A stretch of DNA of 64,000 nt from Ignavibacteriota bacterium. Lineage in GTDB: Bacteria; Bacteroidota; Ignavibacteria; Palsa-1295. Below the pieces are notes generated by a model. That model saw only the letters and a program-made list of their open reading frames with translations, ran no database searches and was not told the DNA's origin. The position numbers and the translations under genes were made by a program. The stretch covers positions 245,486-309,485 of the forward strand of contig CAWBEI010000002.1 of NCBI GenBank assembly GCA_963787835.1, given 5' to 3'. Positions 8,255 to 43,022 of this stretch are shown piece after piece; position 1 is the first letter of the stretch; every line of letters begins with the position of its first letter.

Positions 8255-9592
8255 TTACAACTCGTACACCGAAATACTCACATTGGAAATAGTCACCGGA
8301 CCAGAACCATCGGTATTTTGCACGGACATATCGATCCAGATCTTCGCGGTCTGCTTCGTCGTGATAATTCCACTCAGCGAAAAAGGAAATTGGTTGACGT
8401 TATTGTGTGATTCCTGTAATTGTGCCGCCCCCAACGTTGTGCCCGTTGCTGTGACGCCATTGCCAGGTGCAGGAAACGTCGTTCCATACCGAAGCTGTAA
8501 GGAGCTTTGGTTTGGTGACGTACCCGATGTATTCAGCACGCTACCGGAGATGATGATAAAAAATAAACCGCTTCCTCCGGGGGTAATCGTGGCTGTACCA
8601 CCCAATCCCATCATCACGGCAGACGTGCTTGTGGTGGAAGCGGGATTCGATGGTGTGAACTGACCCACATTTACTGTGGCATTAGTAAAACTCGTTCCAT
8701 TCGACTGCAGCACCTGACCGGCCGATCCAGACGTAGAAGGAAACGCAGTAGAGGTTGGAACATACGCTGTCCCATTTCCTTCAAGGATGTAGCCTGTCGT
8801 CCCTGTGCCGTTGATCTTAAACCCCGTGGCAACATTAAGCACCCCAGCACCAGGATCTTTAGGGGTGGTAATGCCGAGCGTTGCGCCGCCGCTTGCATAC
8901 AGATCAAAATCGGACGCATAACCGCCATTATCTTGATTGTCCGAAATATCGAGATAGGAGGAATCGGTACTGGATGACGAAGTAAACGGGATGAGCTGCA
9001 TGATCCAGTCCACCGGCTCATTCGTACCGCCCCACCCTTGCCCGTGCATGTGCAAGCGTGGCGACCACTGTTGAAGTGACGATGTCGCGGCGGTGGTATT
9101 GCTCAAAACAAGAGCATCCACCGGTGCTGCGAGTGTTGAGGTCTCAGAAACATCCTGAGCAACCGTCCAGGTGTTCGCATGAGGAAGATCGATCTCAAGT
9201 GGCGTGGGCGAAATACCCTTTCCGGTGAGCGTGGTGCCATCCACATTCAACGTGGTCCACGAAGTGGTGGTACCGTTCGAGGTAATGAATTGATTCGGCG
9301 AACCGGCACCATAACTATAAACGGGATTCGTCACCACCCACGAAAGGTTACCAGAGCCATCGTTGGTGAGAAACCCGTTCGCAACTTCGGTGGCTGGCAA
9401 AATGAAAGAATATGGGGCAGTCAGCGTGGGGGCGGCGAGCGTCACAGTCGCTGTTGTACTCGACCCAGTTCCCGCAAGAACAAGGGATTTAGCATACGTT
9501 TTATCATAGACCTGCGCGGACGCATACGGCATGCCGCACGTCATGAGGATGCAAAAAACCGCCAGTGCAAAAAGAGGGATCGTGTACTTCAT
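8255..9592 (-). CDS. secreted fibre-like protein, paralog A (class-1 head)
   Basis: The signal peptide ends ...MPYASA and is followed by QVYDKTYAKS. The shared N-module is SLVLAGTGSS..VTLAAP..FILPAT..NDGSGNLSW. The central block SPRLHMHGQGWGG..VDWIMQLIP is shared with B and C. The C-terminus ends ..IWIDMSV..VSISVYEL. Confidence 0.9.
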   Translation of the reverse strand: MKYTIPLFALAVFCILMTCGMPYASAQVYDKTYAKSLVLAGTGSSTTATVTLAAPTLTAPYSFILPATEVANGFLTNDGSGNLSWVVTNPVYSYGAGSPNQFITSNGTTTSWTTLNVDGTTLTGKGISPTPLEIDLPHANTWTVAQDVSETSTLAAPVDALVLSNTTAATSSLQQWSPRLHMHGQGWGGTNEPVDWIMQLIPFTSSSSTDSSYLDISDNQDNGGYASDFDLYASGGATLGITTPKDPGAGVLNVATGFKINGTGTTGYILEGNGTAYVPTSTAFPSTSGSAGQVLQSNGTSFTNATVNVGQFTPSNPASTTSTSAVMMGLGGTATITPGGSGLFFIIISGSVLNTSGTSPNQSSLQLRYGTTFPAPGNGVTATGTTLGAAQLQESHNNVNQFPFSLSGIITTKQTAKIWIDMSVQNTDGSGPVTISNVSISVYEL

Positions 9593-9596
9593 GTCG

Positions 9597-10982
9597 CTAT
9601 TCTAATTCTACAATGGAAATAACGACACCGGTAAGCTGTGCATCGATAGGAGTTCCACCGGTGTAGATGGATGTAAGTGCGGGATCGACCCAATACGTGT
9701 TGCCAACGGTTAGTCCCGTAACAATGGCATTCAAGGTAAAGAACCATACGTTGTCGCCATTTGCCATGGTGGCCGTAATAGTGCTCCCGACGGCCGTACC
9801 CGAGTACGTTCCGTTTGCAGCATAGCCGTTGGCTGGTGGATAGTTGGTCCCCGTTGGGCCATAATGGATCTGGGCGCTCTCCCCAAAACCATCGGCAGTA
9901 GGATAGCCTTGTGGGAGGGTCATATTGCCAGTGATAAGGATCAGTACAACACCGCTGCCAGCAGGAGTGAACTGAGCCGTACTTCCTAAACCCATCATGA
10001 CCCCGGTCGTATTGTTCGTTGTTTCCGCTGGATTCGTCGAGATCGTATATTGATGGTTGTATGGGAAGGCCGAGGTAAATCCACCCGTGGTGTTCGAAAA
10101 GATCACATTTCCTGCGCTGCCTGCAGTCGTCGGAAAGGTTGCTGATGAAGCGACGTAATCGGTCCCATTCCCAACGAGTACCTTGCCGGTACCGGCAGCG
10201 CCACCGATCTGCAAGCCCGTTCCAACATTGAGAATCCCCGCTCCCGGATCGGTGGGAGAAGTGATGCCCAACGTTGCGCCTCCACTGGCGAACACATCGA
10301 AACCACTCACATACGCTCCGCCATTCAGAGAATGTTCGAAATCGAGATACGAGGTCGTTGGGCTTGTGGATTCACTGATCGGCACAGCCTGAATGATCCA
10401 GTCTGCGGATTGACTGGCTGCGGCCCACCCCTGGCCGGTAAAATGCACCCGAGGTGCGTATTCCTGCGTGCCGGATGCCGCAGTGGTGGTATTCTCCAAC
10501 AGGAGTGCATCCACCGGACTGGCTGCTGTTGATGTCAATGAAACGGTCTGAGCAGCAGACCACAAATTGCTGTGCGCAAGGTTCAGTGCTAGGTTCGACG
10601 TAATTCCATTGCCCGTGAGCAAGGCATCCGTCGAGAATGCAGTCCACCCGACAACACTGCTGTTGTTGGTAGTTGAAAACGTGTTGGCCGTTCCTGGGGT
10701 TAGGTCCGTGACGGGGGTGGGAATCACCCAGCTACATCCGCCGGTCGTGGTATTCGTAATCTGAAGCACTCCGCTGGCATTCGTGCCAGGGAACATGACA
10801 GGAATGCTTGCGCTCAAGGTCGGGGAAGAGATCGTCAGGGTATTCGTAAGATCCGTTCCGTTCCCAGCAAGCGTGATCGATTTCGCATACATCTTATCGA
10901 ACGCTTGCGCATAACTCCCCTGGCTCGTGCCAAGCAGAATGAGCACAATGGCTGCGACTCCAATAATGATCTTATGCGTCAT
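9597..10982 (-). CDS. secreted fibre-like protein, paralog B (class-1 head)
   Basis: Lies 4 nt downstream of... rather, its stop is 4 nt upstream of the A start. The signal peptide ends ..GSYA and is followed by QAFDKMYAKSITLAGNGTD. It has APRVHFTGQGWAA..ADWIIQAVP and a head ending TYWVDPAL..VVISIVELE. Confidence 0.9.
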   Translation of the reverse strand: MTHKIIIGVAAIVLILLGTSQGSYAQAFDKMYAKSITLAGNGTDLTNTLTISSPTLSASIPVMFPGTNASGVLQITNTTTGGCSWVIPTPVTDLTPGTANTFSTTNNSSVVGWTAFSTDALLTGNGITSNLALNLAHSNLWSAAQTVSLTSTAASPVDALLLENTTTAASGTQEYAPRVHFTGQGWAAASQSADWIIQAVPISESTSPTTSYLDFEHSLNGGAYVSGFDVFASGGATLGITSPTDPGAGILNVGTGLQIGGAAGTGKVLVGNGTDYVASSATFPTTAGSAGNVIFSNTTGGFTSAFPYNHQYTISTNPAETTNNTTGVMMGLGSTAQFTPAGSGVVLILITGNMTLPQGYPTADGFGESAQIHYGPTGTNYPPANGYAANGTYSGTAVGSTITATMANGDNVWFFTLNAIVTGLTVGNTYWVDPALTSIYTGGTPIDAQLTGVVISIVELE

Positions 10983-10988
10983 GGCCGT

Positions 10989-12329
10989 TCAAAATTCTAT
11001 CACCGTGATCGTTACGTTGTTGATGCTCGACGTAAAGGAAGTGGCTTCCGCCGTTAGATCAAGATCGATCCAGTAGGTGTTTGTGGATGACAATCCGGTA
11101 ACAACGCTGGTTGCACTGAAAAAAAAGTAGTTGTCCGCGCTATAACTCTGCTCGGAAACCAAAGAGCCAGTGGTGGTTCCCACAGGGCCTGTGGTTTGGT
11201 AGGTCGGGGCAGCACCGGTCCCGAAGCAGATCTGTGCAGTCGAAATATCCGGGGGATTTCCGCTGCTGTTCCACAAATTCCCGGTGGCGATAATGAGCAC
11301 CGTACCACTGAGCGACGGTTTGAAGGTCGCAGTCCCCCCAAATCCAAGCATAACATTATCTTTACTGTTCGTAGTCACATACGGGCCAGCGGTGAAGGTA
11401 AAGTTCGTGGCATTGGGTGCGCCGGAAATAAAATTCGTACCGTCGGACCGAAGAATATTCCCGCTTGCGCCAGCCGACGCGGGGTAGGTTGCTGTGGAGG
11501 GAACGAAGTCCGTGCCGTTCCCGATCAACAGAGTTCCATTCGCCGCTGCGCCGTTAACTTTAATACCCGTGCCAAAACTTAATACTCCGCTGCCGGGGTC
11601 CGTCGGGGATGCAATCCCGAGCGTGGCGCCACTGCTTGAAAAAAGATCGAAATCCGATGAATACCCGCCCGTACCGTTTTGTTGATCCTCGATGTCGAGA
11701 TAGGAAGAGGTCGGACTGCTGGAAGAATTGACAGGCACCACCTGCGCGATCCAGTCGATCGCTTCGCTCGAACCACCCCATCCCCGACCGTTCCAATGCA
11801 GGCGCGGCGAATATTCCTGCGTACCGGATGCTGCGGGAGTAGTATTGCTAAGCACAATTCCATCGGTCGAAGTGGCGCCGATGCTTTGAGATGAACCTTG
11901 CGCGGCCGTCCAGACATTCGTATGCGTGAGAATCATCGCAAGCGCCGTACTGACCCCGTTTCCGGTCAGCGTTACGCCATCGACGCCGAGCGAAGCCCAT
12001 GCGATAGCGCTGCTGTTGTTGGTGATGAGAAACTGGTTTGCAGAACCGGTTGGAATATCACCCACAGGAAGCCCACTCCACGATAGCCCGCCGGAACCAT
12101 TATTGACGAGCGCACCCGCTGCGTTCGATGCCGGAAGCGTGAGTGTGATCGAACTGGTGGGGGTAGCTGCTGAGATCGTGAGCTTATTCGCCGTGCTCGT
12201 GCCGCCGCCAGCGAGAATGAGCGATTGAGCATATTTTTTATCGTACGCCTGGGCGCCAGCTCGCGTCGATATCCCTGCCGCAAATGCGAGCAGGGCTAAG
12301 CCAACCACGGCAAGGTTATTCACTTTCAT
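10989..12329 (-). CDS. secreted fibre-like protein, paralog C (class-1 head)
   Basis: Its stop is 6 nt upstream of the B start. The signal peptide ends ..RAGA and is followed by QAYDKKYAQSLILAGGGTS. It has SPRLHWNGRGWGG..IDWIAQVVP and a head ending TYWIDLDL..VTITVIEF. Confidence 0.9.
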   Translation of the reverse strand: MKVNNLAVVGLALLAFAAGISTRAGAQAYDKKYAQSLILAGGGTSTANKLTISAATPTSSITLTLPASNAAGALVNNGSGGLSWSGLPVGDIPTGSANQFLITNNSSAIAWASLGVDGVTLTGNGVSTALAMILTHTNVWTAAQGSSQSIGATSTDGIVLSNTTPAASGTQEYSPRLHWNGRGWGGSSEAIDWIAQVVPVNSSSSPTSSYLDIEDQQNGTGGYSSDFDLFSSSGATLGIASPTDPGSGVLSFGTGIKVNGAAANGTLLIGNGTDFVPSTATYPASAGASGNILRSDGTNFISGAPNATNFTFTAGPYVTTNSKDNVMLGFGGTATFKPSLSGTVLIIATGNLWNSSGNPPDISTAQICFGTGAAPTYQTTGPVGTTTGSLVSEQSYSADNYFFFSATSVVTGLSSTNTYWIDLDLTAEATSFTSSINNVTITVIEF

Positions 12330-12379
12330 GTGTTAGTGTACGATCCTGCGAATGATGTGGAACATCCCAGGACTTGGGG

Positions 12380-12389
12380 AAAAATCGTT
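12380..12389 (-). promoter_or_regulatory. shared upstream motif (A/G)(A/C)CGATTTTT, copy upstream of paralog C
   Basis: The minus strand reads AACGATTTTT, with 50 nt between the motif and the ATG at 12329. The same 8-mer occurs 49 nt upstream of the ATGs of E (18177) and F (22047). It resembles an nAnnTTTG-type -7 box of Bacteroidota-like promoters. Confidence 0.35.
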
Positions 12390-12529
12390 CTTTCGATCAA
12401 TTGCCAACGTTCGAGCAGCAATAAGCGAGTTATGCCATCCCCTGATTCAGCAACCTGATATCAAACGCTCTGGGGTGGTAATAGGTTTTCAGCCATTGTA
12501 CAGTTCATAGAATGAAAATATTCCTATTG

Positions 12530-12961
12530 CTATTCAAGTTCAAACTGCTGCCATTGATGATCGAACCCGAACATTAGCAAATGAGTCTGCTGCCCTAACA
12601 TTCCTTTTACCTGGGGATGATCGGATCGGTCAAAGAACAGCCGGAAAAACATTCTATTATGTGCGGAATTATCGCAAATCAGGATAAGGAATGTTCCGGG
12701 AGCCACATTATCCGTAGGAAGATAAACCGATACCACTCGGCTCGGCGTATCGTTTAACACCGGCAATCCGTTCAGCAAGTGCTGAACAGGCGGATAGGAA
12801 TTAAGTTCTTTATCTTCGGTGAGTGTATATTGTGCCGAAGGAAATACAAAAGGCCCGCCGCCCGATGAAACGGAGATCGGAGGCGGAATCGTGCGCGGTG
12901 CGGAGCAACCGCTCCACACACAGGTTGCAACAGTGAAAAGCCCTGCCGCCATTCTAGACAT
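12530..12961 (-). CDS. hypothetical small lipoprotein embedded in the fibre array
   Basis: ATG at 12961 gives MSRMAAGLFTVATCVWSGCSAP (lipobox). The protein is 143 aa and starts 14 nt downstream of paralog D's stop. Its composition is ordinary, not Thr/Gly-rich. Confidence 0.6.
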   Translation of the reverse strand: MSRMAAGLFTVATCVWSGCSAPRTIPPPISVSSGGGPFVFPSAQYTLTEDKELNSYPPVQHLLNGLPVLNDTPSRVVSVYLPTDNVAPGTFLILICDNSAHNRMFFRLFFDRSDHPQVKGMLGQQTHLLMFGFDHQWQQFELE

Positions 12962-12975
12962 GTAGGGCAATCCTC

Positions 12976-14664
12976 TTATGGCAGTTCTATAACCGTGAAC
13001 TGCACATTGTTCAAGGCCGAGCCCTGGCACCCACTCGCCCAGGTAGTCCAACCGTCAATCCAATAGGAGTGACCAACGGTCAAGCCGCTAACATAGGCGC
13101 TGACACAGAACGGCGCCTGCTCATCATGCTGACCAGACTCGACAGAAATAGTGCAAAGAGGTCCTAATGACGTTGCTGTTGAAGTAGCTGGTGTGGTACC
13201 CGCATGAGTTGGTGCTACATTCGTGGCGGCATCCTCATAATACATTTGGACCGCCGCTAAGGCGGTGGCTGTGCTGCTGCTGCTATTGGACATAAACAAA
13301 TTTCCGGTGATGTTTATGAGAAACCTTCCCGTCGATTTTGGCGTGAACGTATAGCTAGCCGAGTGTGAAAGCCCGACCCATTGCCCACTGGTCGTGGTAT
13401 CATTACCTGGAGATGCGATGTTCGTGGACTGGTTATAATACTGCGGCGGTGAAGTGCTGCTGTTCCACTGCATGGTCACGGTATTACCCGTGATGTTTGA
13501 AACCTCCATTAATTGGCCGACTGCAGTAGGACCAGCAGCGGGAAGGATGTACGTGTATCCCGTAGTAGCCGCACCACCCTGAATCGTGGTTACAGTGGTT
13601 CCCGCCGTGGAATTTGCAAGGGCAAGAGATCCAGTCGTCGATGCAGCCTTGCCAAGGGTAAGCGCACCGGCAGAAGAAACCGACCAGTTCGAACTGGTGC
13701 CGAGGATATCCGTATTGGTCGTCCCACCGGTAACATTGAGCGTGAGTCCGGTATTCGTTGCCGTGGTACCACTCCACGATCCGGTGGAACTTAAAGAAAG
13801 ACCGGTCTTCGCAATGCTTGTCGTGCTGCTGGTTGCATCGTTCAGGATGGTCGCTTCAGTGAAGGCGGTCGTCTTAGCAGGAGCGCCAGCCGTAACATCG
13901 AACCCTGCGCTGGTTTGCGCGGTGTATTGATTCGCGATAAAAGCGCCAGTCACGTCAGCAGCGACCAGCGAACGGAACGTTGGTGCCCCTGCTGATCCAT
14001 TTGGCGCAGCAAATACTGTGTTCGCCGCCTCAGAAGCCAGCGTGCCTGTTAATGTGCCCGTCGTAGTGACTGGGGAACCTGATATGGTAAAGATCGAGGG
14101 AAGTGCAAGGGCTACGCTTGTCACGCCGGTATTAGCTATGGAGATGGAGCCGACGCCGTTCGTCACCGATACTCCGGTTCCTGCTGTAAGAGTGGTGAGC
14201 GAGTAATTCGTACCATTCCCGATGAGCAGCTGACCGTTCGTAGGTGTCGTCGTCAGCCCCGTGCCGCCATTAGCGACCGGCAGTGCTGTGCCAGAAAGGG
14301 TTAACGCAAGCGTGCCGTTACTCGTGATCGGAGAACCACTGATCGAAAGGAAACTCGGAACCGTCATAGCAACTGAAGTGACAGTACCAATCGCCGACGT
14401 GGACCACGTTAGCCCACCCGTTGTAGTATTAGAAACAAGGGCCAAACCGGTGGAACCCGGCAACGCCGCTGGCAGGGTAAGCGAGAAAGCTGTAGTCGGC
14501 GTCGGAGCAAGGATGGTGACCGTATGAACAACATCCGCCTGACTCCCTGCGAGCGTGATCGATTTAGCATACTCTTTATCCACTGCTTGTGCATGGGCAC
14601 GCCCAGCCATGCCCACTACCGCAGCGAGCATGATCAAATATACAAAGAAATGTTTGGTCTTCAT
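12976..14664 (-). CDS. secreted fibre-like protein, paralog D (class-1 head)
   Basis: The signal peptide ends ..RAHA and is followed by QAVDKEYAKSITLAGSQAD. It has two VTSVA..(V/L)PS(F/I)..ISGSP cassettes, plus TLSGTALPVANGGTGLTT and APTFRSLVAADV. The head ends SYWIDGW..VQFTVIELP. Confidence 0.9.
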   Translation of the reverse strand: MKTKHFFVYLIMLAAVVGMAGRAHAQAVDKEYAKSITLAGSQADVVHTVTILAPTPTTAFSLTLPAALPGSTGLALVSNTTTGGLTWSTSAIGTVTSVAMTVPSFLSISGSPITSNGTLALTLSGTALPVANGGTGLTTTPTNGQLLIGNGTNYSLTTLTAGTGVSVTNGVGSISIANTGVTSVALALPSIFTISGSPVTTTGTLTGTLASEAANTVFAAPNGSAGAPTFRSLVAADVTGAFIANQYTAQTSAGFDVTAGAPAKTTAFTEATILNDATSSTTSIAKTGLSLSSTGSWSGTTATNTGLTLNVTGGTTNTDILGTSSNWSVSSAGALTLGKAASTTGSLALANSTAGTTVTTIQGGAATTGYTYILPAAGPTAVGQLMEVSNITGNTVTMQWNSSTSPPQYYNQSTNIASPGNDTTTSGQWVGLSHSASYTFTPKSTGRFLINITGNLFMSNSSSSTATALAAVQMYYEDAATNVAPTHAGTTPATSTATSLGPLCTISVESGQHDEQAPFCVSAYVSGLTVGHSYWIDGWTTWASGCQGSALNNVQFTVIELP

Positions 14665-14706
14665 GTATTAATTTTTACCGTTAATTCCGAAGATCTGACA
14701 GGATGC

Positions 14707-17700
14707 TTATTTGGATGAGACCACTCTCCACCCGCCGGTAGTATTATAGGTGGAATCATAGATCAATGTCAATATTCCGTCGGGCGCGAGGATCAGGCTA
14801 TTACCGCTACCACCGACGAGATGAATCACGTCCCCAGCCGTACCTGCATCACTATTGAAAGTGATATTATAACTGCCCGTATTCACTAGGATCATGACGC
14901 GACCGTCCGCGCCACCTGTGATACCGTTTACAGTAGCTCCCGACGGACCTCCTGCGGAAATTTTGAAATAGCTGTTGGTTGTGCTTAACGCCCAGGCATT
15001 AGTGCTGCTACCGCTGGTTAGTTGCGTTGGGCTGTTAGAAGTCAGCGCCGCGCCACCGAATGTTTGGGTACCGGTCCAGGTGTTAGCATTGGTAAGATTG
15101 ATGCCGAGTTCATGCGCTGCAACGGTGCCTACCTGCAAGGTTGCATCGTAATTGAGCACATCCGCATTCAGGGTTTTATTAGCGGTGGAACTATTCACCG
15201 AACTCACAAGCGCTGCAGCCTGCGCCGCCGTCGTTGGGAGGGTTTGTGTACCGGTCCAAGTATTAGCATGAGTGACATCAAGCGTGAGCGTAGTGGTTCC
15301 ACCAAGGGCAACCGAACCGCCGCCGGCCAAACCAGAACCCGCCGTGACCGTAAGGCTCGGATTTGCAAGTGCTGAGTTCGGAACCGCAGAAGCGTTGATC
15401 GTCACCGCGCCTGTTCCTCCGCTTAAGCTGATACCCGTGCCAGCGACTGCGGAAGTTACACCTGTATTAGAAAGTGTTACCGTACCGCCAAGCGAAACCG
15501 GCGAACCCGATACCCCAAGACCCGTACCGCCTGTCACCGTGATGCTCGAATTGGCAAGCGCAGAGTTCGGAACCGACGTCGCGTTGACCGTGATCGACCC
15601 AGCGCCGTTCGTGATTGAAATTCCCGTGCCACTCGTAAGTGTTCCAAGCGAAAGAGTATTACCCGTCGTGTTGCCGATCAGCAACTGGCCGTTCGTGTAA
15701 GAGGTCTGACCCGTGCCGCCATTGGCAACCGGAAGGGCTGTGCCCGAAAGTGTTACTCCAAAGGTGCCACTTGATGTAATCGTTGCAGGAGAAACGGAAA
15801 GAAATGTTGGAACCGTCATGCCGACCGAAGTGACCGACCCGCTATTCGTAGTATTCAGCACTGTACCCGTAAAACTGAGACCCGAGCCAAGCGTGATTTC
15901 CTCCGGAACCTGATTTGTAGAGGCCGTCGGATTACCGAGTAGCGTAGTGTGCGTCTCGCTCTGCATCTTGGCATAAGTAACCTTATTCGCCCCGATCGTA
16001 ATGAGACCGGCATCGGTAATCGTCGCATCACCGCTCATTGCAACAGGGTTCCACGCAGGTGTGGATGAATTATAGATGAGCATGTTTGCATCTGCCACGC
16101 TTGCCATCGAACCGAGTGGGGATCCGTTGATCTTCTTTACAGCCGTTGTGCCCTGCGGTCCCGTTACATCACCGGCGAGATTACCACTGAAATTCGTTGC
16201 CGTAGTTCCTGCGGGAAGCGTCACGGTTCCCGTGAAGTTCACCGTGCCAGCAACCGTAGTGTTGCTCGGGCCGGTGTTATTGCCAATGTTAATGTTCATG
16301 GCACCGGAGGTATCGCCAATATTGATAGGATTCGTACCGGTCACATCGATATCGGTCGCTCCTCCCGTTGTGCGCAGCGTTCCAGTGTTGTTAAAGCTGG
16401 TATTCGAGGTCAGTGTGGTGAAAGCACCCGTGCCTGGAGTGGTTGCACCGACCGTGCCATTGAATGCTCCCGCGATGTTGTTGCTCGCGTTCGTGGCTGT
16501 GACGGCACCGGTGAGCGTTGAAGCATTGGTAACCGTGAGGCCTGTGCCTGCGCCATTGAAGGTAGCATCTCCGCCAACCGTCATGGCATTCGCTACGGCA
16601 AATGTTGTTGCATGAGAACCGTTGACCGTTGCCTGTGCTACGTGTGTCGAGGTGTTCTGAAGCGTCACGTCCTGCGTCATCATCGCGGTATCGGCAGTGG
16701 CCGAAGTAGCATCGCCGATGAAAATATCATTCTTCGCTAAACCGAGAGATGAGGAGGATAACGAACCTGCGGGAAGCGTCACCGTGCCAGTGAAGTTAAC
16801 CGTGCCGGCAAGCGTGGTCACGCTCGGGCCGGTATTATTGCCAATGTTGATGTTCATGGCACCGGAGGTATCGCCAATATTGATGGGATTTGTGCCCGTC
16901 GTACTGATATCTGTCGTTCCCGTAGTGCGCAGCGTTCCGGTCGTTTGGATGCTTCCGGTCGTATTGATCACCGTCGAACCGCCGATATTGCCGGCGCCCG
17001 TGATCTGTGCTGCCGGATAGGTCAGTCCGCTCGGGAGCGTCTGTGACCATTGCGGCGTGCCGATCGGAGATGCCGCATTAGTGATAAGAACCGAATTAGC
17101 CGATGGGGCAAGTGGCGTAGCTACGTTGCTCGTATTGCCGACCAACATATATTGATTGGTAAGCCCGATAGAACCCGCTGTAACTGAACCGGAAGGTAAC
17201 GTAACCGTGCCCGTGAAACTTACGGCACCGGCGAGATATGTGGTGCTGCTGTCGCCGGGACTGCCAGCGCTGCCGTTATTACCGATGGTAACCACACCGC
17301 CTGTGCCCGCAGTCGCATCGATACTCGTGTTCGCAGCCGGCGCTGAAGCCGGGCTGTTAATATTTGTGTTGCCATAGACATTGGTCGTGCTCGTGCTGTT
17401 ACCAATGTTGTTCGTTCCACCCGTCGCGCTGTTATCAATATTGGTGGTCGGATTCGAACCGCTGTTATTGAGGCCACCACCGCTCGGTGTGAGGATTCCA
17501 CCTGTGAAGCTTGCCTGACCGGTATTCGTAACATACCATGAATCACCTGTGATGTCATTCACACCGGAACCCGGCGTGGCAGCATTCGACAGGGTAAGCG
17601 GCGTTCCAGATCCAGCACCACTTGCTGGGGTGTTAATCGTTTGCTTAGCCGTCCATGTGTTAGAATTCGCAAGGTTGATACCAAGTTTATTTGAACTAAC

Positions 17701-18177: not shown

Positions 18178-18225
18178 ATGGTTGGGACCCTGCTCGCGCA
18201 CAACGTCCCCTGAAAATTAAATTCC

Positions 18226-18236
18226 AAAAAATCGTT
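18226..18236 (-). promoter_or_regulatory. shared upstream motif AACGATTTTTT, copy upstream of paralog E
   Basis: The minus strand reads GAACGATTTTTTGG, with 49 nt between CGATTTTT and the ATG at 18177. It sits downstream of the hairpin that follows paralog F. Confidence 0.35.
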
Positions 18237-18268
18237 CAACTACTAATAACCGTGTCGTGATCTATTGG

Positions 18269-18321
18269 AAAAAGATCCCGAGGATCCGGGCCGCAGCAGC
18301 ACATCGTTGATGATGTGCTGC
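18269..18321 (-). terminator. hairpin(s) plus T-run downstream of paralog F
   Basis: GCAGCACATC (18296-18305) pairs with GATGTGCTGC (18312-18321) as a perfect 10-bp stem with a 6-nt loop. On the minus strand this is followed by a small CCCG..CGGG stem and TTTTT (18269-18273). Confidence 0.5.
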
Positions 18322-18387
18322 AATGCGCGACCCGATCTCTTCGATATTCATTTCCATTACTCTTATCCTTCGATGCGTCGATCGCGA

Positions 18388-21300: not shown

Positions 21301-22047
21301 GTTACCAATGTTGTTCGTACCACCCGTCGCGCTATTATCAATGTTGGTGGTCGGATTCGAACCACTGTTATTGAGGCCACCGCCGCTTGGCGTGAGGATT
21401 CCACCAGAGAAGCTTGCCTGGCCCTGGTTCGTTACATACCATGAGTCGCCAGAAATGTCATCACTGCCCGCCGCACCAGTATTTGTTACCGTAAGTGGGG
21501 TGGTAGCCGTTGAGGAGCTGAAGTTTTGCGCACCCGTCCATGTGTTAGGATTCGTAAGGTTGATACCGAGAGCATTGGTGCTAACCGTCAACGTGCTATT
21601 GATGTCCAGCACATTAGCATCCAAGGAGCCAACGGCAACTTGGCCGATTCCACTGCCGTAGTTATTGAGTGCTCCAACGATGTCCGTTCCAGCGGTATTT
21701 TCAATGACCGTAGCTGCGGACGTCCCCCCCACATCACCGCTCAAATTCACGGTGAGTCCGGAGGCAGGGTTGGTCCAGCTCAGACCCCCCGTCGTGGTGT
21801 TCATGGTAAGCACATACCCGACAACGCCGCCAGGCTCCGTGCCCGGGAACGTCAGCGTGAACGAGTTTGCCGCAGGAACGGCCGCGTTAAGCGTCACCGT
21901 TTTTCCGGTGTTCGTTCCCCCTCCGGCAAGTATCACTTCCGTGCTGAAGTCGGATTTATAGGTTTGCGCGTTCACAGTAGTGGCCGGCAGCAGCATCGCA
22001 TATGCAGCAAGCATCGCGACTGGAATCGCAAGTTTAAGGTATTTCAT
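18388..22047 (-). CDS. secreted fibre-like protein, paralog F (class-2 C-terminus)
   Basis: The signal peptide ends ..TTVNA and is followed by QTYKSDFSTEVILAGGGTN. The N-terminal ~400 aa are nearly colinear with E. An internal ~95-aa block is duplicated. The C-terminus ends ..SVTLIYDGSKWRLIGAE. Confidence 0.9.
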   Translation of the reverse strand: MKYLKLAIPVAMLAAYAMLLPATTVNAQTYKSDFSTEVILAGGGTNTGKTVTLNAAVPAANSFTLTFPGTEPGGVVGYVLTMNTTTGGLSWTNPASGLTVNLSGDVGGTSAATVIENTAGTDIVGALNNYGSGIGQVAVGSLDANVLDINSTLTVSTNALGINLTNPNTWTGAQNFSSSTATTPLTVTNTGAAGSDDISGDSWYVTNQGQASFSGGILTPSGGGLNNSGSNPTTNIDNSATGGTNNIGNSTSTTNVYGNTNINSPVTGPDANTDIDATGDKGVVTIGNNGTGSGDSSTTYLAGAVDFTGTVQLPSGSVTAGSIGLTNQYMLVGNTSNDATPLAPSANSVLITNAASPIGTPQWSQTLPSGLTYPAAQITGAGNIGGSTVINTTGSIQTTGILRTTGGGAADINTTGTSPVNIGDTSGAMNINIGNSAGPSTTTVLGNTNINSPATGPDNNTDIDATGSMGVVTIGNNGTAGATPPYSDSSTTYLAGAVNFTGTVNIPAGDLNLGLASADIFVGNGATPSIATGVAMSGDVHIDNTGKTTIQPSAVTNGDLANDATTVTAGSGLSGGGSAVLGSGTTLSINDAYGNTWSTLQTFNGGLTETGNANLNNSPANTVVNSTTNIDAGTGTEGVINIGNNGGTTPGDSSTTNMAGTVNFTGAVNIPAGDLNLGLAYENIFVGNNGTPNVAAPLAPSSNSVFITAGSDHTTPEWATTLPSDLTIPTLTASSSTNGVAGAALSLNNTDVSGTSLDVSGTGNTWNVTNTGVATFNGGVNTSDGNASNISNTIGSSGTGSTTTINGANTNINNSTTGSIVNSTTNLDAGVGSEGVINIGNNGSVGNPGDSSTTNIAGAVNFTGAVNIPAGDLNLGLASADIFVGNGATPSIATGVAMSGDVHIDNTGKTTIQPSAVTNGDLANDATTVTAGSGLSGGGSAVLGSGTTLSINDAYSNSWSTLQTFSTVTSTGNTTIDVPSPAGATGTTNINAGTGTTLGNINIGNNGTAHTIGTLDSSLTTINGDVNLTGNVDFTGTVKLPAGSVTPSSLSLTTSHLFVGNASSDAEDVGMTGDAGIVFTAGTPDVGKVTVSAASGASGFTVTNATQLNGTLTAVGQTTLGSTALSSATVAAAATLTLTTSNSAYLLTATAAPVTVNSITGANTTAGQIITLVNTDPTNNITLHSNGSLVLNGGDVIMTPGGSVTLIYDGSKWRLIGAE
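19190..20566 (-). repeat. intragenic direct duplication in paralog F (two ~290-bp near-identical segments, 1086 bp apart)
   Basis: About 19190-19480 and about 20276-20566 both encode ASADIFVGNGATPSIATGVAMSGDVHIDNTGKTTIQPSAVTNGDLANDATTVTAGSGLSGGGSAVLGSGTTLSINDAY. The plus-strand shadow ORFs at 19193 and 20282 have almost identical N-termini. Confidence 0.8.
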
Positions 22048-22091
22048 GTGTTGTTTCGTGAATTAGATTAATGGAGATGAAGTTAGGAATA

Positions 22092-22121
22092 ATCGCAAAA
22101 ATCGCTAAGTTATCGCAAAAA
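22092..22121 (-). promoter_or_regulatory. repeated TTTTTGCGAT motifs upstream of paralog F
   Basis: The minus strand reads TTTTTGCGATAACTTAGCGATTTTTGCGAT, with GCGAT three times and TTTTTGCGAT twice 20 nt apart. The proximal CGATTTTT lies 49 nt from the ATG at 22047. Confidence 0.35.
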
Positions 22122-22131
22122 CACTTTGTAG

Positions 22132-23532
22132 CTAATCGTTTGTCGAGACCAGTACCCACTTACCAAGGTGAGATGGGTCCGCATTGTCGTTCGTGTCGTA
22201 AAGAAATGTTGCCGCCCCTTTTTGGCCAAGTAGAATGGGCTTGCCGCCAGGGAGATCGAACTCGTCCACGGAAGCAGAATTCGCATCCAGGTTCGTGATC
22301 TGGATGATGTCGCCAGGATCGCTGCTCACGTTTGCGATCGTTACCATTCTACCGTCTGGAACGCTCGTGCTTGAAATTCCGCTGACGTTGATCTGCTTCG
22401 CAGGACTATTGGTGTTCGAAAGACGAATATACCCAACGGAATTAGCAACTGTATAAGGACTTTGATCCGTCGAGACGGCGTCAGATGCAATTGTTGGGGT
22501 TACTGTCGCCCCGTTGGTGATGTAGGACACCGCATGGGTGGTAGGATCCACGCCAAGCACCTGTCCGTCTGTACCCTGAGGAAGTCTTGAGAGGGCCGTT
22601 GTAGAACTTGCAACAAGAATGTCTCCGGTGGCGTACGTGCTATTGCCAGTTCCTCCTGCGACAGCGTTGACGGGTGCTGCCGGAGCATTCGCATTCAGCG
22701 AGGCCGCGATGTCGGTGCTGGCCGATTGGTTCGCCGCGATCGTTGGATTTGGATAGGTATTTGCAAGGTCGCCTCCGGCATTTCCGGAGGGAGCCGCTCC
22801 GATGGCGGTAAGTTGTCCGCCTGGGGTGACCGTGATGGTCGTATTATCAACAGAAACCACGCCAACGGAACTGGACGTTGCGATCGGAAGGTCTCCCGTG
22901 GGAATCGTTCCGGTGTTCGTTAAATTATCATTAGCATCGGTAAAGACCGGCATCGAGGCCGTAAGGCCAGCGATGTTCACATTTCCGGAGGTAACCGAAA
23001 GCGCGGTACCGCTCGCAACGGTATTGCTCGCTACGATCGGTGCGTTCGCATTAGATATATTCGAAAAGCTTTTTTGACCACTAATTGCCTGAGCGCCCTG
23101 GGTCATGACGAAACTCGCATTGGCTCCGGATGCTGGGATTGTGTCGATAAATGTGGATGTGCCTGGGTTCGCGGCCTGAATTTTAACATAGCCGTTTCCT
23201 CCAACATTGTAGAATTTGAGCGTTCCCGTAAGCGGGGTGTAGGGAGTGAGCGCATTAGATGGTTCGCCGATATTAGCGTTTTGAAGATGAAGTATTTGCT
23301 CCTCACCCATATTGAGATTGGAGACGGAACGGCCGTTAAACGTGAGCGTGTTCGAGTTTGAACCGCCGAGGACCAGATTCCCGTCGATCGTGGTGTTGCC
23401 AGAAGATGTATTAAGAAATACATCCTGCTGAACGGTCAGGGTTCCATTGATGACTTGATTCTGCGCGAATACCGTATCAACTCCTCCGAGCAGGAAGAGG
23501 CACGCTAAGCCTATTTTAGTTATTTTTTGCAT
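22132..23532 (-). CDS. secreted fibre-like protein, paralog G (class-2 C-terminus)
   Basis: ATG at 23532 gives MQKITKIGLACLFLLGGVDTVFA followed by QNQ. The displaced N-module is GTLKFYNVGGNGYVKIQAANPGTSTFIDTIPAS. It also has GGDLANTYPNPTI, and the C-terminus ends ..AATFLYDTNDNADPSHLGKWVLVSTND. Confidence 0.85.
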   Translation of the reverse strand: MQKITKIGLACLFLLGGVDTVFAQNQVINGTLTVQQDVFLNTSSGNTTIDGNLVLGGSNSNTLTFNGRSVSNLNMGEEQILHLQNANIGEPSNALTPYTPLTGTLKFYNVGGNGYVKIQAANPGTSTFIDTIPASGANASFVMTQGAQAISGQKSFSNISNANAPIVASNTVASGTALSVTSGNVNIAGLTASMPVFTDANDNLTNTGTIPTGDLPIATSSSVGVVSVDNTTITVTPGGQLTAIGAAPSGNAGGDLANTYPNPTIAANQSASTDIAASLNANAPAAPVNAVAGGTGNSTYATGDILVASSTTALSRLPQGTDGQVLGVDPTTHAVSYITNGATVTPTIASDAVSTDQSPYTVANSVGYIRLSNTNSPAKQINVSGISSTSVPDGRMVTIANVSSDPGDIIQITNLDANSASVDEFDLPGGKPILLGQKGAATFLYDTNDNADPSHLGKWVLVSTND

Positions 23533-23627
23533 GTTTCGCAATGTTCACAAAATTCGCACTTGTAACCCTCATCCAGCCCCGCGATGCATCACCATAATGC
23601 GGCGCGAAACCGGAAAAAAGACCGAAC

Positions 23628-26600
23628 CTATCGGCTCGGATTCACAATTATATAACCTACATTCACCGTCTTATTTGCCGTTGAAGTTTTACCGCTCAGT
23701 ACATTCTGAGTAAGCACCAAAGTAAAGTGACCGCTTGTCTGCCCCGTCGCTTGCACCGTGTATGTTGACTTTCCAGCATCGGGATCATTTTGAACCGTCG
23801 CCATAATAATGCTTGTAGATGAGCAGTACTCATTGCCCACCTGAAAATCTGCTTCTTGAATGTAAGGACCAGATTCAGATGCAAATCCCGACGCAAGTTG
23901 AACCAACCCCGAAGGGCCTTCCGATCCGGATACAGCGTTGTTTACCGTCGTGACACCGCTGCCGTTTTCGCCGTTCGGATTCGACGTCATTCCCATCGTC
24001 AGCTCACCGTTCTCGACATCCAGCGCCACATTTGTTTGGCCGTCTCCCGTTTCCCCATTTCCGCCCTGCGCAAGCACGCCGATGCTTTCAGTGTTGGTGG
24101 CAGAATTGCCGCTCGCAAGACCCCAAACGCCAATTACGGTTCTTCCCGAGGAATTACCTGCGGTTCCGACCGCCTCACCACGAACGCCAAAGGAGCCCGT
24201 GAAACCAGAGCCGCCAAAATTATAGTCATTATTCAGTTCACTATACGAGGTGGTCGCGTTGGTTACACCATAGATTCCAGAAATAGAGCCTTGTGCAAGA
24301 ATACCGTTCGGGTAATTAGCACTTGTAATTCCGATAGCAGCACCTGAATGGTTTGTATTGTCGGAGTTCGAACCCGCCATCTTGATCGAGTAAGTAGGAG
24401 TCGATGCCGTGCTGGAAAGCCCACCCGCAGTAAAAATATCACCTGAAACGCCCTCCAATTTGGCTGCGATGTCCGGTGCATGTGTGGTACCTACAAGGAG
24501 GCCAAAAGAACCCGCTGTAGCAGTAGTCGTTCCGTTGACGGTAATTCCAGCCGAGGATGCACCCGGTGTGAAAGTCGCCGCGATTGCAGTGTTGGTCGAT
24601 GTGCTGCCGGTTGCAGAAACATTCAGACCGGTTGCAGTTCCACCGGATGTAGCAATAGACTTAATAGTGGCCCCCAACGCGCTTGCAACACCCGCAGAAG
24701 GGTATTCCACATCAAATAGCTCATCTCCCGTAGTCGCCGTAATCTGTGCATTGGCAGGAGCGACATTATAATTCACGGCTGTACCGGTGTTCACAGTATT
24801 AAGCACTGTACCGTTAAAGGTTAGCCCCGATCCCAGCGTGATCTCGCTCGGAGCGGCCGATGCTCCGGTCGGATTACCGAGAAGAGTGACCGTGCTTTCC
24901 TGCTGAATATCGCCATACGTCACTGCATTCGCGGTGATCGATGTGGCATTACCAACCGACGTCACCGGACCCGTCAGGTTCGCATCCGTCGTTACCGTGG
25001 CCGCATTACCAGAGATGCTGATCCCCGCTGTGCCCGCCGAAATATTCGCCGCCGTCAGGTTCGTGAGTGCCGAGCCATTACCCGCAGCATAGTTCGTACC
25101 TGTTAACGTATTCATCGCCGCAGTCACCGTGATCGGCGCAGCGCCCGTGAACGTCACACCGTTGATCGTTGCACCCGGAGAAAGCGCGGAAGCCGTCGCT
25201 GCATTACCCGATGTGTTCGACGTGATCGTAGCCGGAAGGTCCGTCGCTGCGATCGAACGGAAGGCCGGAACACTGCCCGCCGTCGTATTCGCAAAAAATT
25301 GATTTGCACTCGCTACCGTCGATAATGTAAACGACAGTGCAGGAGTCGATGTCGGCGTGGCAACCGACGTCGTGAACAATGGGCTCAAGTTGCCGCTCGA
25401 GAACGAGGTAACTGTGCCGCCGCTACCGGTGGCTGTCAGGGTCGTTCCACTAAAGGCAAGACCGGAGCCGAGCGTGATCTCGCTCGGAGCGGCCGATGCT
25501 CCGGTCGGATTACCGAGAAGAGTGACCGTGCTTTCCTGCTGAATATCGCCATACGTCACTGCATTCGCGGTGATCGATGTGGCATTACCAACCGACGTCA
25601 CCGGACCCGTCAGGTTCGCATCCGTCGTTACCGTGGCCGCATTACCAGAGATGCTGATCCCCGCTGTGCCCGCCGAAATATTCGCCGCCGTCAGGTTCGT
25701 GAGTGCCGAGCCATTACCCGCAGCATAGTTCGTACCTGTTAACGTATTCATCGCCGCAGTCACCGTGATCGGCGCAGCGCCCGTGAACGTCACACCGTTG
25801 ATCGTTGCACCCGGAGAAAGCGCGGAAGCCGTCGCTGCATTACCCGATGTGTTCGACGTGATCGTAGCCGGAAGATCCGTTGCCGCGATCGAACGGAACG
25901 CCGGAGTGCTGCCACCGGTCGTGTTCGCGAAAAATTGATTCGCTGCAGTCACCGTCGATAATGTGAATGACAGTGCAGGAGTCGATGTCGGCGTGGCAAC
26001 CGACGTCGTGAACAATGGGCTCAAGTTGCCGCTCGAGAACGAGGTAACTGTGCCGCCGCTACCGGTGGCTGTCAGGGTCGTTCCACTAAAGGCAAGACCG
26101 GAGCCGAGCGTGATCTCGCTCGGAGCGGCCGATGCTCCGGTCGGATTACCGAGAAGGGTGACCGTACTTTCCTTCTGAATATCGCCGTACGTCACTGCAT
26201 TCGCCGTGATCGATGTGGCATTACCAACCGACGTGACCGGACCCGTCAGGTTCGCATCCGTCGTTACCGTCGCCGCATTGCCACTGGTGCTGTTCGTGAT
26301 CGCGCCGCTGCATCGATAACCGATGCCGAGATGCTGCCCACTGTCGGGTTCGGATAGGTGCCCGTCAGGCCGCCGCCCGCTGTGCCGCTGGGTGCCGCTG
26401 TCACCGTAATGTTCGAACCGCCTGTGAAGAGTACACCATTGATCTGGGCACCCGGAGAAAGCGCGGAAGCCGTCGCTGCATTACCCGATGTGTTCGATGT
26501 GATCGTAGCCGGAAGGTCCGTTGCTGCGATCGAACGGAAGGCCGGAACACTGCCCGCCGTCGTATTCGCAAAAAATTGATTTGCACTCGCTACCGTCGAT

Positions 26601-29350
26601 AATGTGAATGACAGTGCAGGGGTCGAGGTCGGCGTGGCAACCGACGTTGTGAACAATGGGCTCAAATTCCCGCTTGAGAACGAGGTAACCGTTCCGCCGC
26701 TACCGGTAGCCGTCAGGGTCGTTCCACTAAAGGCGAGACCGGAGCCAAGCGTGATCTCGCTCGGAGCGGCCGATGCTCCGGTCGGATTACCAAGAAGGGT
26801 GACCGTGCTTTCCTTCTGAATATCGCCGTACGTCACCGCATTTGCTGTGATCGATGTGGCATTACCAACCGACGTCACCGGACCCGTCAGGTTCGCATCC
26901 GTCGTTACCGTGGCCGCATTACCAGAGATGCTGATCCCCGCTGTGCCCGCCGAAATATTCGCCGCCGTCAGGTTCGTGAGTGCCGAGCCATTACCCGCAG
27001 CATAGTTCGTACCTGTTAACGTATTCATCGCCGCAGTCACCGTGATCGGCGCAGCGCCCGTGAACGTCACACCGTTGATCGTTGCACCCGGAGAAAGCGC
27101 GGAAGCCGTCGCTGCATTACCCGATGTGTTCGACGTGATCGTAGCCGGAAGGTCCGTTGCTGCGATCGAACGGAACGCAGGAACACTGCCCGCCGTCGTA
27201 TTCGCAAAAAATTGATTTGCACTCGCTACCGTCGATAATGTGAATGACAGTGCAGGAGTCGAGGTCGGCGTGGCAACTGACGTCGTGAACAATGGGCTCA
27301 AGTTGCCGCTCGAGAACGAGGTGAGCGATCCACTGTTTGTAGTGTTCAAAACAGAGCCCGTAAAGCTTAAACCCGAACCCAGCGTGATCTCGCTCGGAGC
27401 CTGGTTCGTCGCAGCCGTCGGATTGCCAAGCAATGTGGTGTGCGTCTCGTTCTGAATATTCGCATACGTCACTGCACCATTCGTGATCGTCGTCGCATTA
27501 CCGACCGATGTGACCGGACCCGTCAGGTTCGCATCCGTCGTTACCGTGGCCGCATTGCCACTGGTGCTGTTCGTGATCGCGCCCGCTGCATCGATAACCG
27601 ATGCCGAGATGCTGCCTACCGTCGGGTTCGGATAGGTGCCCGTCAGGCCGCCGCCCGCTGTGCCGCTGGGTGCCGCTGTCACCGTAATGTTCGAACCGCC
27701 TGTGAAGAGTACACCATTGATCTGGGCACCCGGAGAAAGCGCGGAAGCCGTCGCTGCATTACCCGATGTGTTCGATGTGATCGTAGCCGGAAGGTCCGTT
27801 GCTGCGATCGAACGGAAGGCCGGAACACTGCCCGCCGTCGTATTCGCAAAAAATTGATTTGCACTCGCTACCGTCGATAATGTGAATGACAGTGCAGGGG
27901 TCGAGGTCGGCGTGGCAACCGACGTTGTGAACAATGGGCTCAAATTCCCGCTCGAAAATGAGGTGAGCGATCCACTATTCGTGGTGTTCAAAACAGAGCC
28001 CGTAAAGCTTAAACCCGATCCCAACGTGATCTCGCTCGGAGCCTGGTTCGTCGCAGCCGTCGGATTGCCAAGCAATGTGGTGTGCGTCTCGTTCTGAATA
28101 TTCGCATACGTCACTGCACCATTCGTGATCGTCGTCGCATTACCAACCGAGGTCACCGGACCCGTCAGATTCGCATCCGTGGTTACCGTGGCCGCATTGC
28201 CACTGGTGCTGTTCGTGATCGCGCCCGCTGCATCGATAACCGATGCCGAGATGCTGCCTACTGTGGGGTTCGGATAGGTGCCCGTCAGGCCGCCGCCCGC
28301 TGTGCCGCTGGGTGCCGCTGTCACCGTAATGTTCGAAGCACCCGTGAAGTTTACACCGTTGATCTGGGCACCCGGAGAAAGCGCTGAAGCCGTCGCTGCA
28401 TTACCCGTCGTGTTCGACGTGATCGTAGCCGGAAGGTCCGTTGCTGCGATCGAACGGAACGCCGGAGCGCTACCACCCGCTAAGTTAGCGAAAAATTGAT
28501 TTGCACCCGCCACCGTCGATAACGTGAACGACAGCGCTGGGGTCGTCGTCGGTGTCGCAACCGATGTTGTGAACAATGGACTCAGGTTCCCACTTGAAAA
28601 CGACGTCACGGTACCACTGCTCGCCGTGACATTCAATGTGGTTCCGGAAAAGCTAAGCCCAGAACCCAGCGTGATCTCCTCCGGAGCCTGTCCTGATCCC
28701 GTCGGATTGCCCAACAAAGAGTGAGCACCCTCATTCTGGATCTTACCGTAGGAAATGGTGCTATTTGTGATGTCATTGTTAACTATGGCACTCCAGCTTG
28801 GCGGCGTTGAGCCATGCAACACCGTGTTCGCACCACCGTTCGCGATAGTAACGAAATTCCCGCTGCCATCGGTCGAGACATTCGAATTCGGAGTCAAGGC
28901 ACCGGCTGCCGTTACGATCCCAAGTTGTGCCGTCGTGGCATAGTCCCACGCACCATCGCTTCCGCCGTTATGGCCATCGCCGCTTAAGCTTGGCTGGTTC
29001 GGATACAGCCAGTAGGGAATAGTTACCGTGGTAGGATACGGAGACGCTGTTGGTGTTAATGGGCCAACATAAAGAAATCCGCTCTGGGCATTATTCGTCG
29101 GAGGAATGGGAACTTCCCAGATAAGAGGCGCATACGGCGGCGAGGTATGAGACCAGGCATTTGCTTCCGGACTTCCATAGAGCGGCGCCTGAATTGAAAC
29201 GGTGTGTCCATGATAATCATCCAGCACGAGCGCACCGCCCGCAATACCTCGAACCTGACCGATGGCATCTTGAGTTAACACGGTTCCCGCAAAGGCAACG
29301 AGAAAAAGGCATGCACGAAAGGGAGAAGGGGAAAGATTGGCTTTTTTCAT
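23628..29350 (-). pseudogene. giant fibre-like protein, paralog H (~1950 aa if repaired), interrupted by a 1-nt deletion near 26305
   Basis: ORFs 26264..29497 (ATG 29350: MKKANLSPSPFRACLFLVAFAGTVLTQDAIG followed by QVRG) and 23628..26195 are consecutive parts of one repeat protein. The sequence cgcgccgctg at about 26301-26310 reads gcgcccgctg in the sister units at 27581-27590 and 28221-28230. Restoring that C gives ..SVIDAAGAITNSTSGNAATVTTDANLTGPVTSVGNATSITANAVTYGDIQKE.. without interruption. Confidence 0.85.
24795..28753 (-). repeat. six and a fraction tandem coding repeats of 636-642 bp inside paralog H
   Basis: Unit starts derived from the ORF frames are 28753, 28111, 27469, 26833, 26192, 25556 and 24920 (partial). 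Several hundred bp are identical between units (for example about 24841-25230, 25471-25860 and 26841-27140). Plus-strand shadow ORFs beginning MNDSAGV.VGVATDVVNNGLK recur every 636-642 bp. Confidence 0.9.
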
Positions 29351-41453: not shown

Positions 41454-41462
41454 CATGTTGCT

Positions 41463-43019: not shown

Positions 43020-43022
43020 TTT

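Follow-up and report, generated by a model that had tools for sequence, protein, structure and literature searches.

The closest described counterpart of the proteins reported here is the superfamily of mosaic adhesive trimers (MATs) in Bdellovibrio bacteriovorus, which comprises 21 proteins (Caulton et al., Nat Microbiol 2024, PMC10769870). In each MAT, the signal peptide is followed by an N-domain that is conserved, rich in β-structure and about 130 amino acids long, and then by a trimeric shaft of phage type. The tips are diverse, with S74 domains, β-sandwiches of novel type, TNF-like folds and a C-type lectin among them (PMC10769870). The S74 chaperone-protease domain is present in 13 of the 21 proteins, and the MATs are 95–100% conserved between strains HD100 and 109J (PMC10769870). 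MATs were shown to be surface displayed, one of them binds glycans, and MAT proteins are listed in several bacteria of the Fibrobacterota-Chlorobiota-Bacteroidota (FCB) group (PMC10769870). Nine fibre genes, designated A to I and all located on the minus strand, were analysed here in an Ignavibacteriota bacterium from soil or sediment (GCA_963787835.1, contig CAWBEI010000002.1, positions 245,486–309,485; this stretch of 64,000 nucleotides is referred to as the window, and its coordinates are used throughout). Genes A to H form an array at 8255–29350, and gene I lies apart at 36781–38064. The most fitting description of the array is that of a MAT-like family of exported fibres that stem from tail fibres of phages. 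With a probability of roughly 60%, the locus is a hypervariable chromosomal island of Sec-exported, phage-tail-fibre-derived fibres, which most likely serve surface recognition or adhesion in the way MAT fibres do.

MATs and the array proteins have in common a signal peptide followed by a conserved N-terminal region, a phage-like shaft and swappable tips, TNF-like ones included. Both are encoded by many paralogues per genome, some of them neighbouring, and the tip of the MAT protein Bd2734 shares the PDB matches 2wq4 and 4qpy with the head of protein C. Since this architecture has been reported in FCB-group bacteria, the array is not without precedent. An earlier note, made from the DNA alone, had proposed a chromosomal multigene family of surface fibres, adhesins or receptor-binding proteins, the members of which share an N-terminal module and differ in exchangeable shafts and heads. 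The family and its build hold in essence, but the note had also stated that an already characterised system would speak against its claim, and the MAT superfamily in part plays this role. Differences are also evident. The N-terminal module of the array is distinct from, or at least not yet linked to, the MAT N-domain, and the two were likened by published architecture. Unlike MATs, the array is arranged in a single 21-kb tandem row with an embedded lipoprotein gene and occurs in a phylum not known as predatory. Hypervariability between genomes is documented for the array, whereas MATs are near-invariant between HD100 and 109J.

Three other systems invite comparison. Phage tail fibres share homologous or fold-similar shafts, junction motifs and tips with the array (8ke9; PHROG 31660 and 1833; DUF5907; Phage_depo_C), and both are mosaics that evolve by swapping modules. 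In contrast to phage fibres, the array proteins carry Sec signal peptides and a cell-specific N-terminal module, and neither a virion-attachment domain nor virion genes accompany them. Pgp3 of Chlamydia and the BclA/ExsFA-type proteins of the Bacillus exosporium are secreted or surface-located proteins with a TNF/C1q-like trimeric head on an elongated stalk and were recurrent Foldseek matches. However, they lack sequence homology to the array, are encoded by single genes and have stalks formed by a coiled coil or triple helix (Pgp3) or collagen-like stalks (BclA). The type IX secretion system (T9SS) adhesins of the FCB group (SprB/RemA-type, with a Por_Secre_tail C-terminal domain, CTD) are large surface proteins with the same phylum-level background and the same preference for Gln after the signal peptide (Q-rule), but neither a type A nor a type B CTD is found in any of the nine fibres.

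Modules of the nine fibre proteins

All nine proteins possess a hydrophobic signal-peptide core (KD, i.e. Kyte-Doolittle hydropathy, 2.0–3.5), preceded by lysine or arginine and followed by glutamine behind an AxA-type site, as called by a crude hydropathy test. The Sec signal and the Gln, which the earlier note had regarded as features of the family, are therefore present throughout. The Gln is also found after the signal peptide of other secreted proteins in the window, and a Q-value of 77% was reported for Ignavibacterium album (Bochtler et al., PMC5837995). Since the Q-rule applies to the whole genome and phylum, this residue is not a family trait. The residues T, G, S, N and A together account for 52–65% of the nine fibres compared to 36% of the other proteins in the window, and K, R, E and C for 2–4% compared to 14.7%, which bears out the unusual composition noticed before.

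The N-terminal module (N-module) approximately reads Q-x-[YF]-D-K-x-x-A-x-S-h-x-L-A-G-x-G-T-x-x-T-x-T-h-T-h-x-A-P-T...h-T-h-P-x-x-N-A-x-G-x-L-x-N-x-G-x-G-x-L-S-W. It is significant in A to F only (BLAST 1e-8 to 1e-55); a 58-state hidden Markov model (HMM) scored 63–90 bits on these six proteins and matched nothing else at E ≤ 1 among the 440 open reading frames (ORFs) of the window. In A to C and their relatives, the module reaches about 110 amino acids. H and I start with another motif, Q-V-R-...-A-L-x-L-D-D-x-x-G-H (signature LDDxxGH). Two proteins of other genomes (L003_1453 and P0044) join an H/I-type first half to an A–F-type second half, and because of these intermediates the module of H and I is probably a diverged version of the A–F one. 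Compared directly by hhalign, the H/I variant and the A–F module show a weak match (P 6e-4, probability 29%), and the likeness between the N-termini of I and H is weak as well (3e-3). In about 20 other representative proteins the N-module was always found at the N-terminus, directly after the signal peptide. A homologue search with a 65-amino-acid profile of the module returned one weak match, and its HMM had no match in 3173 ORFs of 80 viral loci carrying the shaft repeat. Judged by sequence, the N-module is specific for cells and absent from phage fibres.

The shafts and some of the tips were assigned to phage tail-fibre families, as the earlier note had suspected. The tail-fibre family phrog_31660 was matched by D (3.8e-8) and E (3.8e-18), phrog_1833 by H (2.6e-11) and Pfam Phage_depo_C (PF25692) by F (1.6e-7). 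DUF5907 was found in H only (64.2 and 39.8 bits, 1.3e-17; gathering cut-off 27). The shaft repeat of D occurs in at least 105 viral stretches of IMG/VR with up to 82% identity; in the phage contig inspected, it is located within a tail-fibre gene without signal peptide, beside other tail-fibre genes. No match was obtained when E and C were searched by tblastn against 50,697 GenBank phage records. The low-complexity filter is the probable cause, since scanning IMG/VR with D gave over 100 viral stretches. In an exhaustive search with a profile of A, B and C, 5,993 representative proteins (E ≤ 1e-3) shared at least one module. These matches split into three parts, one always N-terminal, one in the middle and often repeated, and one always C-terminal. 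About half of the best head-carrying homologues have a signal peptide and about half do not, according to the crude hydropathy test.

Within A, B, C, E and F, the junction motif L-x-[HN]-x-N-x-W-[TS]-x-x-Q was counted nine times, compared to two occurrences in the other 51,000 residues of the window ORFs; it may mark recombination joints. It was observed at module boundaries, for example at position 138 of C, 173, 972 and 1032 of E and 168, 595 and 957 of F, as well as in distant, phage-borne-looking homologues.

Protein C was modelled by AlphaFold2 (AF2). With an alignment of 72 sequences, the mean predicted local distance difference test score (pLDDT) was 76, with values of 69–91 for residues 140–250 and 83–97 for the head (residues 305–446); with nine sequences, the pLDDT was 46.6 and the model poor outside the head. 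Going by the predicted structure, the heads of A to D are TNF/C1q-like jelly rolls, i.e. compact C-terminal β-sandwiches of about 140 amino acids. Foldseek related the C head to PLTL, BC2L-C-Nt, C1QL, EDA, Pgp3-C and ExsFA (probability 1.0, template modelling score, TM(target), 0.5–0.67). Among the PDB matches of C were the receptor-binding domain (CBD) of the short tail fibre of cyanophage A-1(L) (8ke9) and BC2L-C-Nt (2wq4). The predicted viral structures of BFVD yielded 180 matches to C at E ≤ 1e-3, with phage tail fibres first and alignments of up to about 540 columns. E, F and G end in a β-sandwich resembling the C-terminal domain of phage depolymerases, and the tips of H and I are distinct from both classes.

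A, B and C are full-length paralogues with 43–46% identity. Beyond these three, sequence comparison depicts the array as a set of mosaics that share individual modules, so the earlier description as eight paralogues applies over the full length to A, B and C only; moreover, a lipoprotein gene (12530–12961) sits inside the row. Protein A (8255–9592, minus strand as all following fibre genes; 445 amino acids) consists of the signal peptide, the N-module (~9338–9514; HMM 83 bits), a middle module and the TNF/C1q-like head (~8258–8680). B (9597–10982; 461 amino acids) has the same architecture with the N-module at ~10728–10907 (90 bits) and the head at ~9600–10031. In C (10989–12329; 446 amino acids), the N-module (~12078–12251) is followed by the middle module (residues ~140–250) and the jelly-roll head (residues ~305–446; 10992–11417). 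D (12976–14664; 562 amino acids) combines an A–C-type N-terminus (N-module at 14404–14589) with a C-terminal domain around repeats matching PHROG 31660. Its tail-fibre shaft repeats comprise residues ~93–240, and its A–C-type head (~12979–13407) is 31–34% identical to those of B and C and is also matched by the A2 profile.

E (14707–18177; 1156 amino acids; N-module at 17890–18081) and F (18388–22047; 1219 amino acids; N-module at 21775–21966) have shafts with 61% identity over about 660 amino acids. E additionally contains a D-type repeat, which is also the type found in I, and an H-type repeat, and ends in a depolymerase-C-like tip (14710–15018; 104 bits with the E/F-tip HMM). The shaft of F is internally repeated (DNA repeats D6 and D10) and is followed by the Phage_depo_C-like tip (18394–18669). 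G (22132–23532; 466 amino acids) has a signal peptide with Q and an N-terminal region of its own, and no BLAST match to any other member of the array was obtained. Its last ~110 residues (E/F-type tip, 22141–22479) match the E/F-tip HMM (E = 1.3e-6, 440 ORFs), and homologues of G are present in the arrays of two other genomes (L003 and L007, see below). I (36781–38064; 427 amino acids) is composed of a signal peptide with Q, the variant N-module (LDDGSGH), one D/E-type shaft repeat (61–74% identical to D and E over 47–72 amino acids) and a separate tip of about 100 amino acids, which is 40% identical to the C-terminus of a 1472-amino-acid protein in the L007 array. Just past the L003 array, at 11407–11868 of that locus, a secreted protein of 153 amino acids is encoded that is 32% identical to the I tip over 69 amino acids and, from this similarity, looks as if it were a free-standing tip domain. 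The minus-strand ORFs of A to G and I were located where the earlier note had placed them, and all gaps that it gave were reproduced: A is separated from B by 4 nt and B from C by 6 nt, E and D are 42 nt apart, and the lipoprotein gene lies 14 nt from D.

H (23628–29350) was the exception, as it is not the single intact gene described previously but is split into two ORFs (26264–29350 and 23628–26195). It encodes the variant N-module (LDDYHGH), DUF5907-type repeats and a distinct tip of about 330 amino acids. Six tandem repeats of 636–642 nt (212–214 amino acids) are located at ~24808–28613 with nucleotide identities of 82–97%. The frameshift site was mapped to 26305..26306 on the minus strand, where GG is found instead of the GGG of the sister repeats, i.e. 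a 1-nt deletion; the broken repeat reads GCGGCGCG at ~26301–26308, and two sister copies read GCGGGCGCG. The missing G and the repeat spacing at the broken copy, 641 nt compared to 642, identify H as a gene that spans about 1907 codons and has lost 1 nt (~1907 amino acids if repaired). That the indel is an error of the long-read assembly is no less likely than that H is a true pseudogene. The genes for a hybrid histidine kinase and HflX in the window are likewise split, which suggests assembly indels or pseudogenes for H, too. Phase variation at the frameshift was considered and rejected, since the run of three G is too short and other genes of the window are split as well.

Variation of the array between genomes

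Orthologous arrays were found in at least four other assemblies; a scan of a genome collection with a narrow alignment had returned two loci only. The closest genome is a metagenome-assembled genome (MAG) labelled Ignavibacteriota (L002/L006), with 95% identity in MutL and 96% in malate dehydrogenase (MDH). Both in this MAG and in L004, a metagenome contig from JGI, the array keeps its position beside the genes for MDH, a DUF2807 protein, MutL and FtsY. In L007, a further MAG, the array adjoins MDH and DUF2807, and a more distant array (L003) adjoins HflX. Furthermore, an independent assembly from another run (L001) equals the window at 8084–16321 with 99.96% identity and without gaps and carries gene A exactly; the A–E region of the assembly is therefore solid.

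The fibres diverge far more strongly than their surroundings. Compared to L004, the flanking proteins MDH, MutL, FtsY and DUF2807 are 98, 97, 96 and 93% identical, whereas the fibres A, B and C show 53, 49 and 49% identity. D is 74.5% identical overall with one block of 18–30%, corresponding to a replaced cassette. E is 84–100% identical over the first ~480 residues, and its identity drops to 16–38% in the 650 that follow. An L007 protein combines an H-type N-terminus with a G-type tip. These replacements and this combination indicate diversification by cassette exchange, which preserves the proximal ends and renews the distal parts. Diversification of the type mediated by diversity-generating retroelements was rejected, as no reverse transcriptase is present and the divergence is cassette-wise rather than adenine-specific.

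The lipoprotein gene inside the array (12530–12961, minus strand), located between D and C and 14 nt downstream of D, behaves differently. Its 143-amino-acid product (lipobox VWSG|C) is 92% identical in L004, compared to 49–75% for the neighbouring fibres there. Only two homologues were found among 5.8 billion proteins, restricted to the closest relatives, and neither a Pfam, NCBIfam or PDB match nor similarity to the fibres was detected. The protein is a candidate for a lineage-specific partner, either an anchor or a chaperone, and nothing more.

Genomic surroundings

On one side of the array, genes for an ABC ATPase, a CDP-alcohol phosphatidyltransferase, FtsY, MutL, the DUF2807 protein and MDH are located. 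On the other side, a PAS hybrid kinase, HflX, dehydrogenases, an extracytoplasmic function (ECF) sigma factor and lipopolysaccharide genes are encoded, as are a PorV/PorQ-family protein, a GWxTD protein and two T9SS cargo proteins. The window is an ordinary piece of the chromosome. Scanning for promoters and terminators gave site counts not above the shuffled expectation; terminator-like hairpins are present at 18290–18277 past the F stop codon and at 23639–23622 at the end of H.

On the MDH side, two lipoprotein-type ORFs are syntenic with the array in L002, L004 and L007, namely the DUF2807 lipoprotein (putative adhesin, head GIN domain; 6105–6833) and an unannotated lipoprotein-like ORF (5173–5991). 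The DUF2807 identities across L002, L004 and L007 are 93, 64 and 52%. Beyond the array, three conserved genes are split or truncated (30125–33551, 33946–35246 and 38553–39044): the PAS hybrid histidine kinase consists of two overlapping ORFs, HflX of two ORFs with a 4-nt overlap, and one short-chain dehydrogenase/reductase lacks the first ~80 residues. The ORF directly downstream of gene I (36111–36698) shows a weak match to 23S rRNA intervening-sequence proteins, below the Pfam cut-off. Long antisense ORFs of up to 511 amino acids, rich in R, cover E, F and H (e.g. 19909–21444 on the plus strand) and most likely result from the biased codon composition instead of being genes.

Farther along the window, at 40611–47274, the ECF sigma factor (40611–41453) is followed by two proteins of about 520 amino acids without family matches and a BNR/sortilin-like T9SS cargo protein of 916 amino acids, the ORF of which overlaps the preceding one. 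A minus-strand envelope cluster (47287–63410) includes a heptosyltransferase, a lipid A acyltransferase, a GWxTD-domain protein (49133–50587), the PorV/PorQ-family protein (50732–51859; NF033709, 2.5e-42), a 1392-amino-acid protein without family match (51886–56064), a TonB-dependent-receptor-like protein with a CarboxypepD_reg domain (56103–59279) and a T9SS CTD cargo protein (59358–61322). This cluster may represent a T9SS-related module.

Proposed function and alternative explanations

For the fibres, the following mechanism is proposed. Each protein would be exported by Sec and cleaved in front of the Gln, which would probably be cyclised to pyroglutamate as in other Q-rule organisms. The N-module would keep the fibre attached at, or close to, the cell envelope, and a modular shaft of phage tail-fibre repeats would project the variable C-terminal tip. 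Other cells or particles might be bound by the tips through their glycans or surface epitopes. Diversity would arise from duplication, tandem-repeat expansion as in H, and cassette swapping at conserved junctions. Trimerisation, passage across the outer membrane, surface display, anchoring by the N-module and a function as lectin or adhesin are what we infer.

Several results weigh against this interpretation. A T9SS C-terminal sorting domain (Por_Secre_tail/TIGR04183 or type B, TIGR04131) was found in none of the nine fibres (Pfam/NCBIfam, E ≤ 0.1), whereas two other proteins of the window do match Por_Secre_tail and the genome uses T9SS. An autotransporter barrel, a lipobox or another outer-membrane export signal was not detected in the nine proteins either. 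G has no match to the N-module HMM, and on sequence grounds H and I are probably linked to the A–F module transitively only; the shared module that the earlier note had aligned by eye is therefore upheld by formal tests in six of the nine proteins, fails in G and is probably present as a divergent variant in H and I. The AF2 confidence of the N-module in C is low (pLDDT 50–74). With respect to MATs, the S74 domain and the capping-loop motif are absent from the array, and no Pfam domain, S74 included, was found in 14 other proteins with the N-module or its variant. No sequence match of the array proteins to solved MAT shafts was obtained, and no useful PDB sequence match was returned for E, the C-terminal half of H, G, the lipoprotein or the A/B/C profile. 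Finally, H may be a pseudogene.

The lack of a recognisable anchor, T9SS CTD or lipobox would also fit fibres that are released and not anchored, i.e. soluble lectins or lectins borne by outer membrane vesicles, acting as agglutinins, in matrix or biofilm, in bacteriocin-like targeting or as phage-receptor or phage-binding decoys. The structures nearest to the head include the secreted soluble lectins PLTL and BC2L-C and the secreted Pgp3 of Chlamydia, and strong diversification suits any function in an arms race. We consider release unlikely, though worth serious thought: for a conserved, strictly N-terminal module on differing shafts and tips, a shared end for docking is the best explanation, the combination of a conserved proximal and a variable distal end is that of anchored phage fibres and MATs, and no toxin or enzymatic domain was detected.

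It is rather improbable that the proteins are structural components of the envelope, such as an S-layer-like coat, a sheath or a periplasmic scaffold, without recognition of a specific ligand. Their low-charge, T/S/G/N-rich composition and high copy number recall some surface-layer and sheath proteins, and the window contains no dedicated exporter. However, TNF/C1q-like and depolymerase-type tips are ligand-binding folds, nine different architectures do not easily fit one lattice, and the extreme divergence of the fibres beside flanks of 93–98% identity argues for diversifying selection on recognition instead of lattice constraint.

The view that the proteins are tail fibres belonging to a prophage, tailocin or extracellular contractile injection system with its genes outside the window, or what is left of a decayed prophage, has very little in its favour and is largely refuted. 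Shaft repeats and tips are common to phage tail fibres, and about half of the distant proteins with an A–D-type head lack a predicted signal peptide (crude test) and look phage-borne. The Sec signal peptides on all nine proteins, on the other hand, do not fit cytoplasmic assembly onto a particle, and none of the 80 viral loci has a match to the N-module. The 64-kb window was found to contain no gene for a capsid, tube, sheath, baseplate or other phage structural protein and no integrase, in agreement with the earlier note, and no tRNA gene either. The same housekeeping neighbours flank the array in several genomes, and this synteny in related MAGs excludes a prophage.

An explanation by artefacts of low-complexity DNA or repeat misassembly, to which the frameshift of H within near-identical repeats, the several other split genes of the window and the antisense ORFs over F might point, is hardly credible and is refuted for A to G and I by the gap-free reproduction of A to E at 99.96%, the four or more orthologous arrays, the thousands of homologues and the confident head model, so that doubt remains for H only (exact repeat number and frameshift).

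If the array is indeed a MAT-like island of cell-borne recognition fibres, phage-derived fibres of this kind would not be a speciality of Bdellovibrio-like predators but a widespread and largely unannotated class of surface recognition proteins. A more far-reaching idea, which we regard as doubtful, is an independent domestication, in which phage modules were combined with a new Ignavibacteriota-specific docking module, a lineage-specific lipoprotein and T9SS-independent export to give a rapidly diversifying system of contact-dependent cell recognition (predation, epibiosis or partner capture). If true, it would point to an overlooked lifestyle of cell-cell interaction in a phylum regarded as free-living heterotrophs. 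The locus constitutes a natural tip-swapping experiment, with fibres of about 50% identity or replaced cassettes in otherwise near-identical genomes, and the swapping pattern could help to define rules for the engineering of modular receptor-binding proteins. The same pattern points to a strong selective pressure on the cell surface of Ignavibacteriota.

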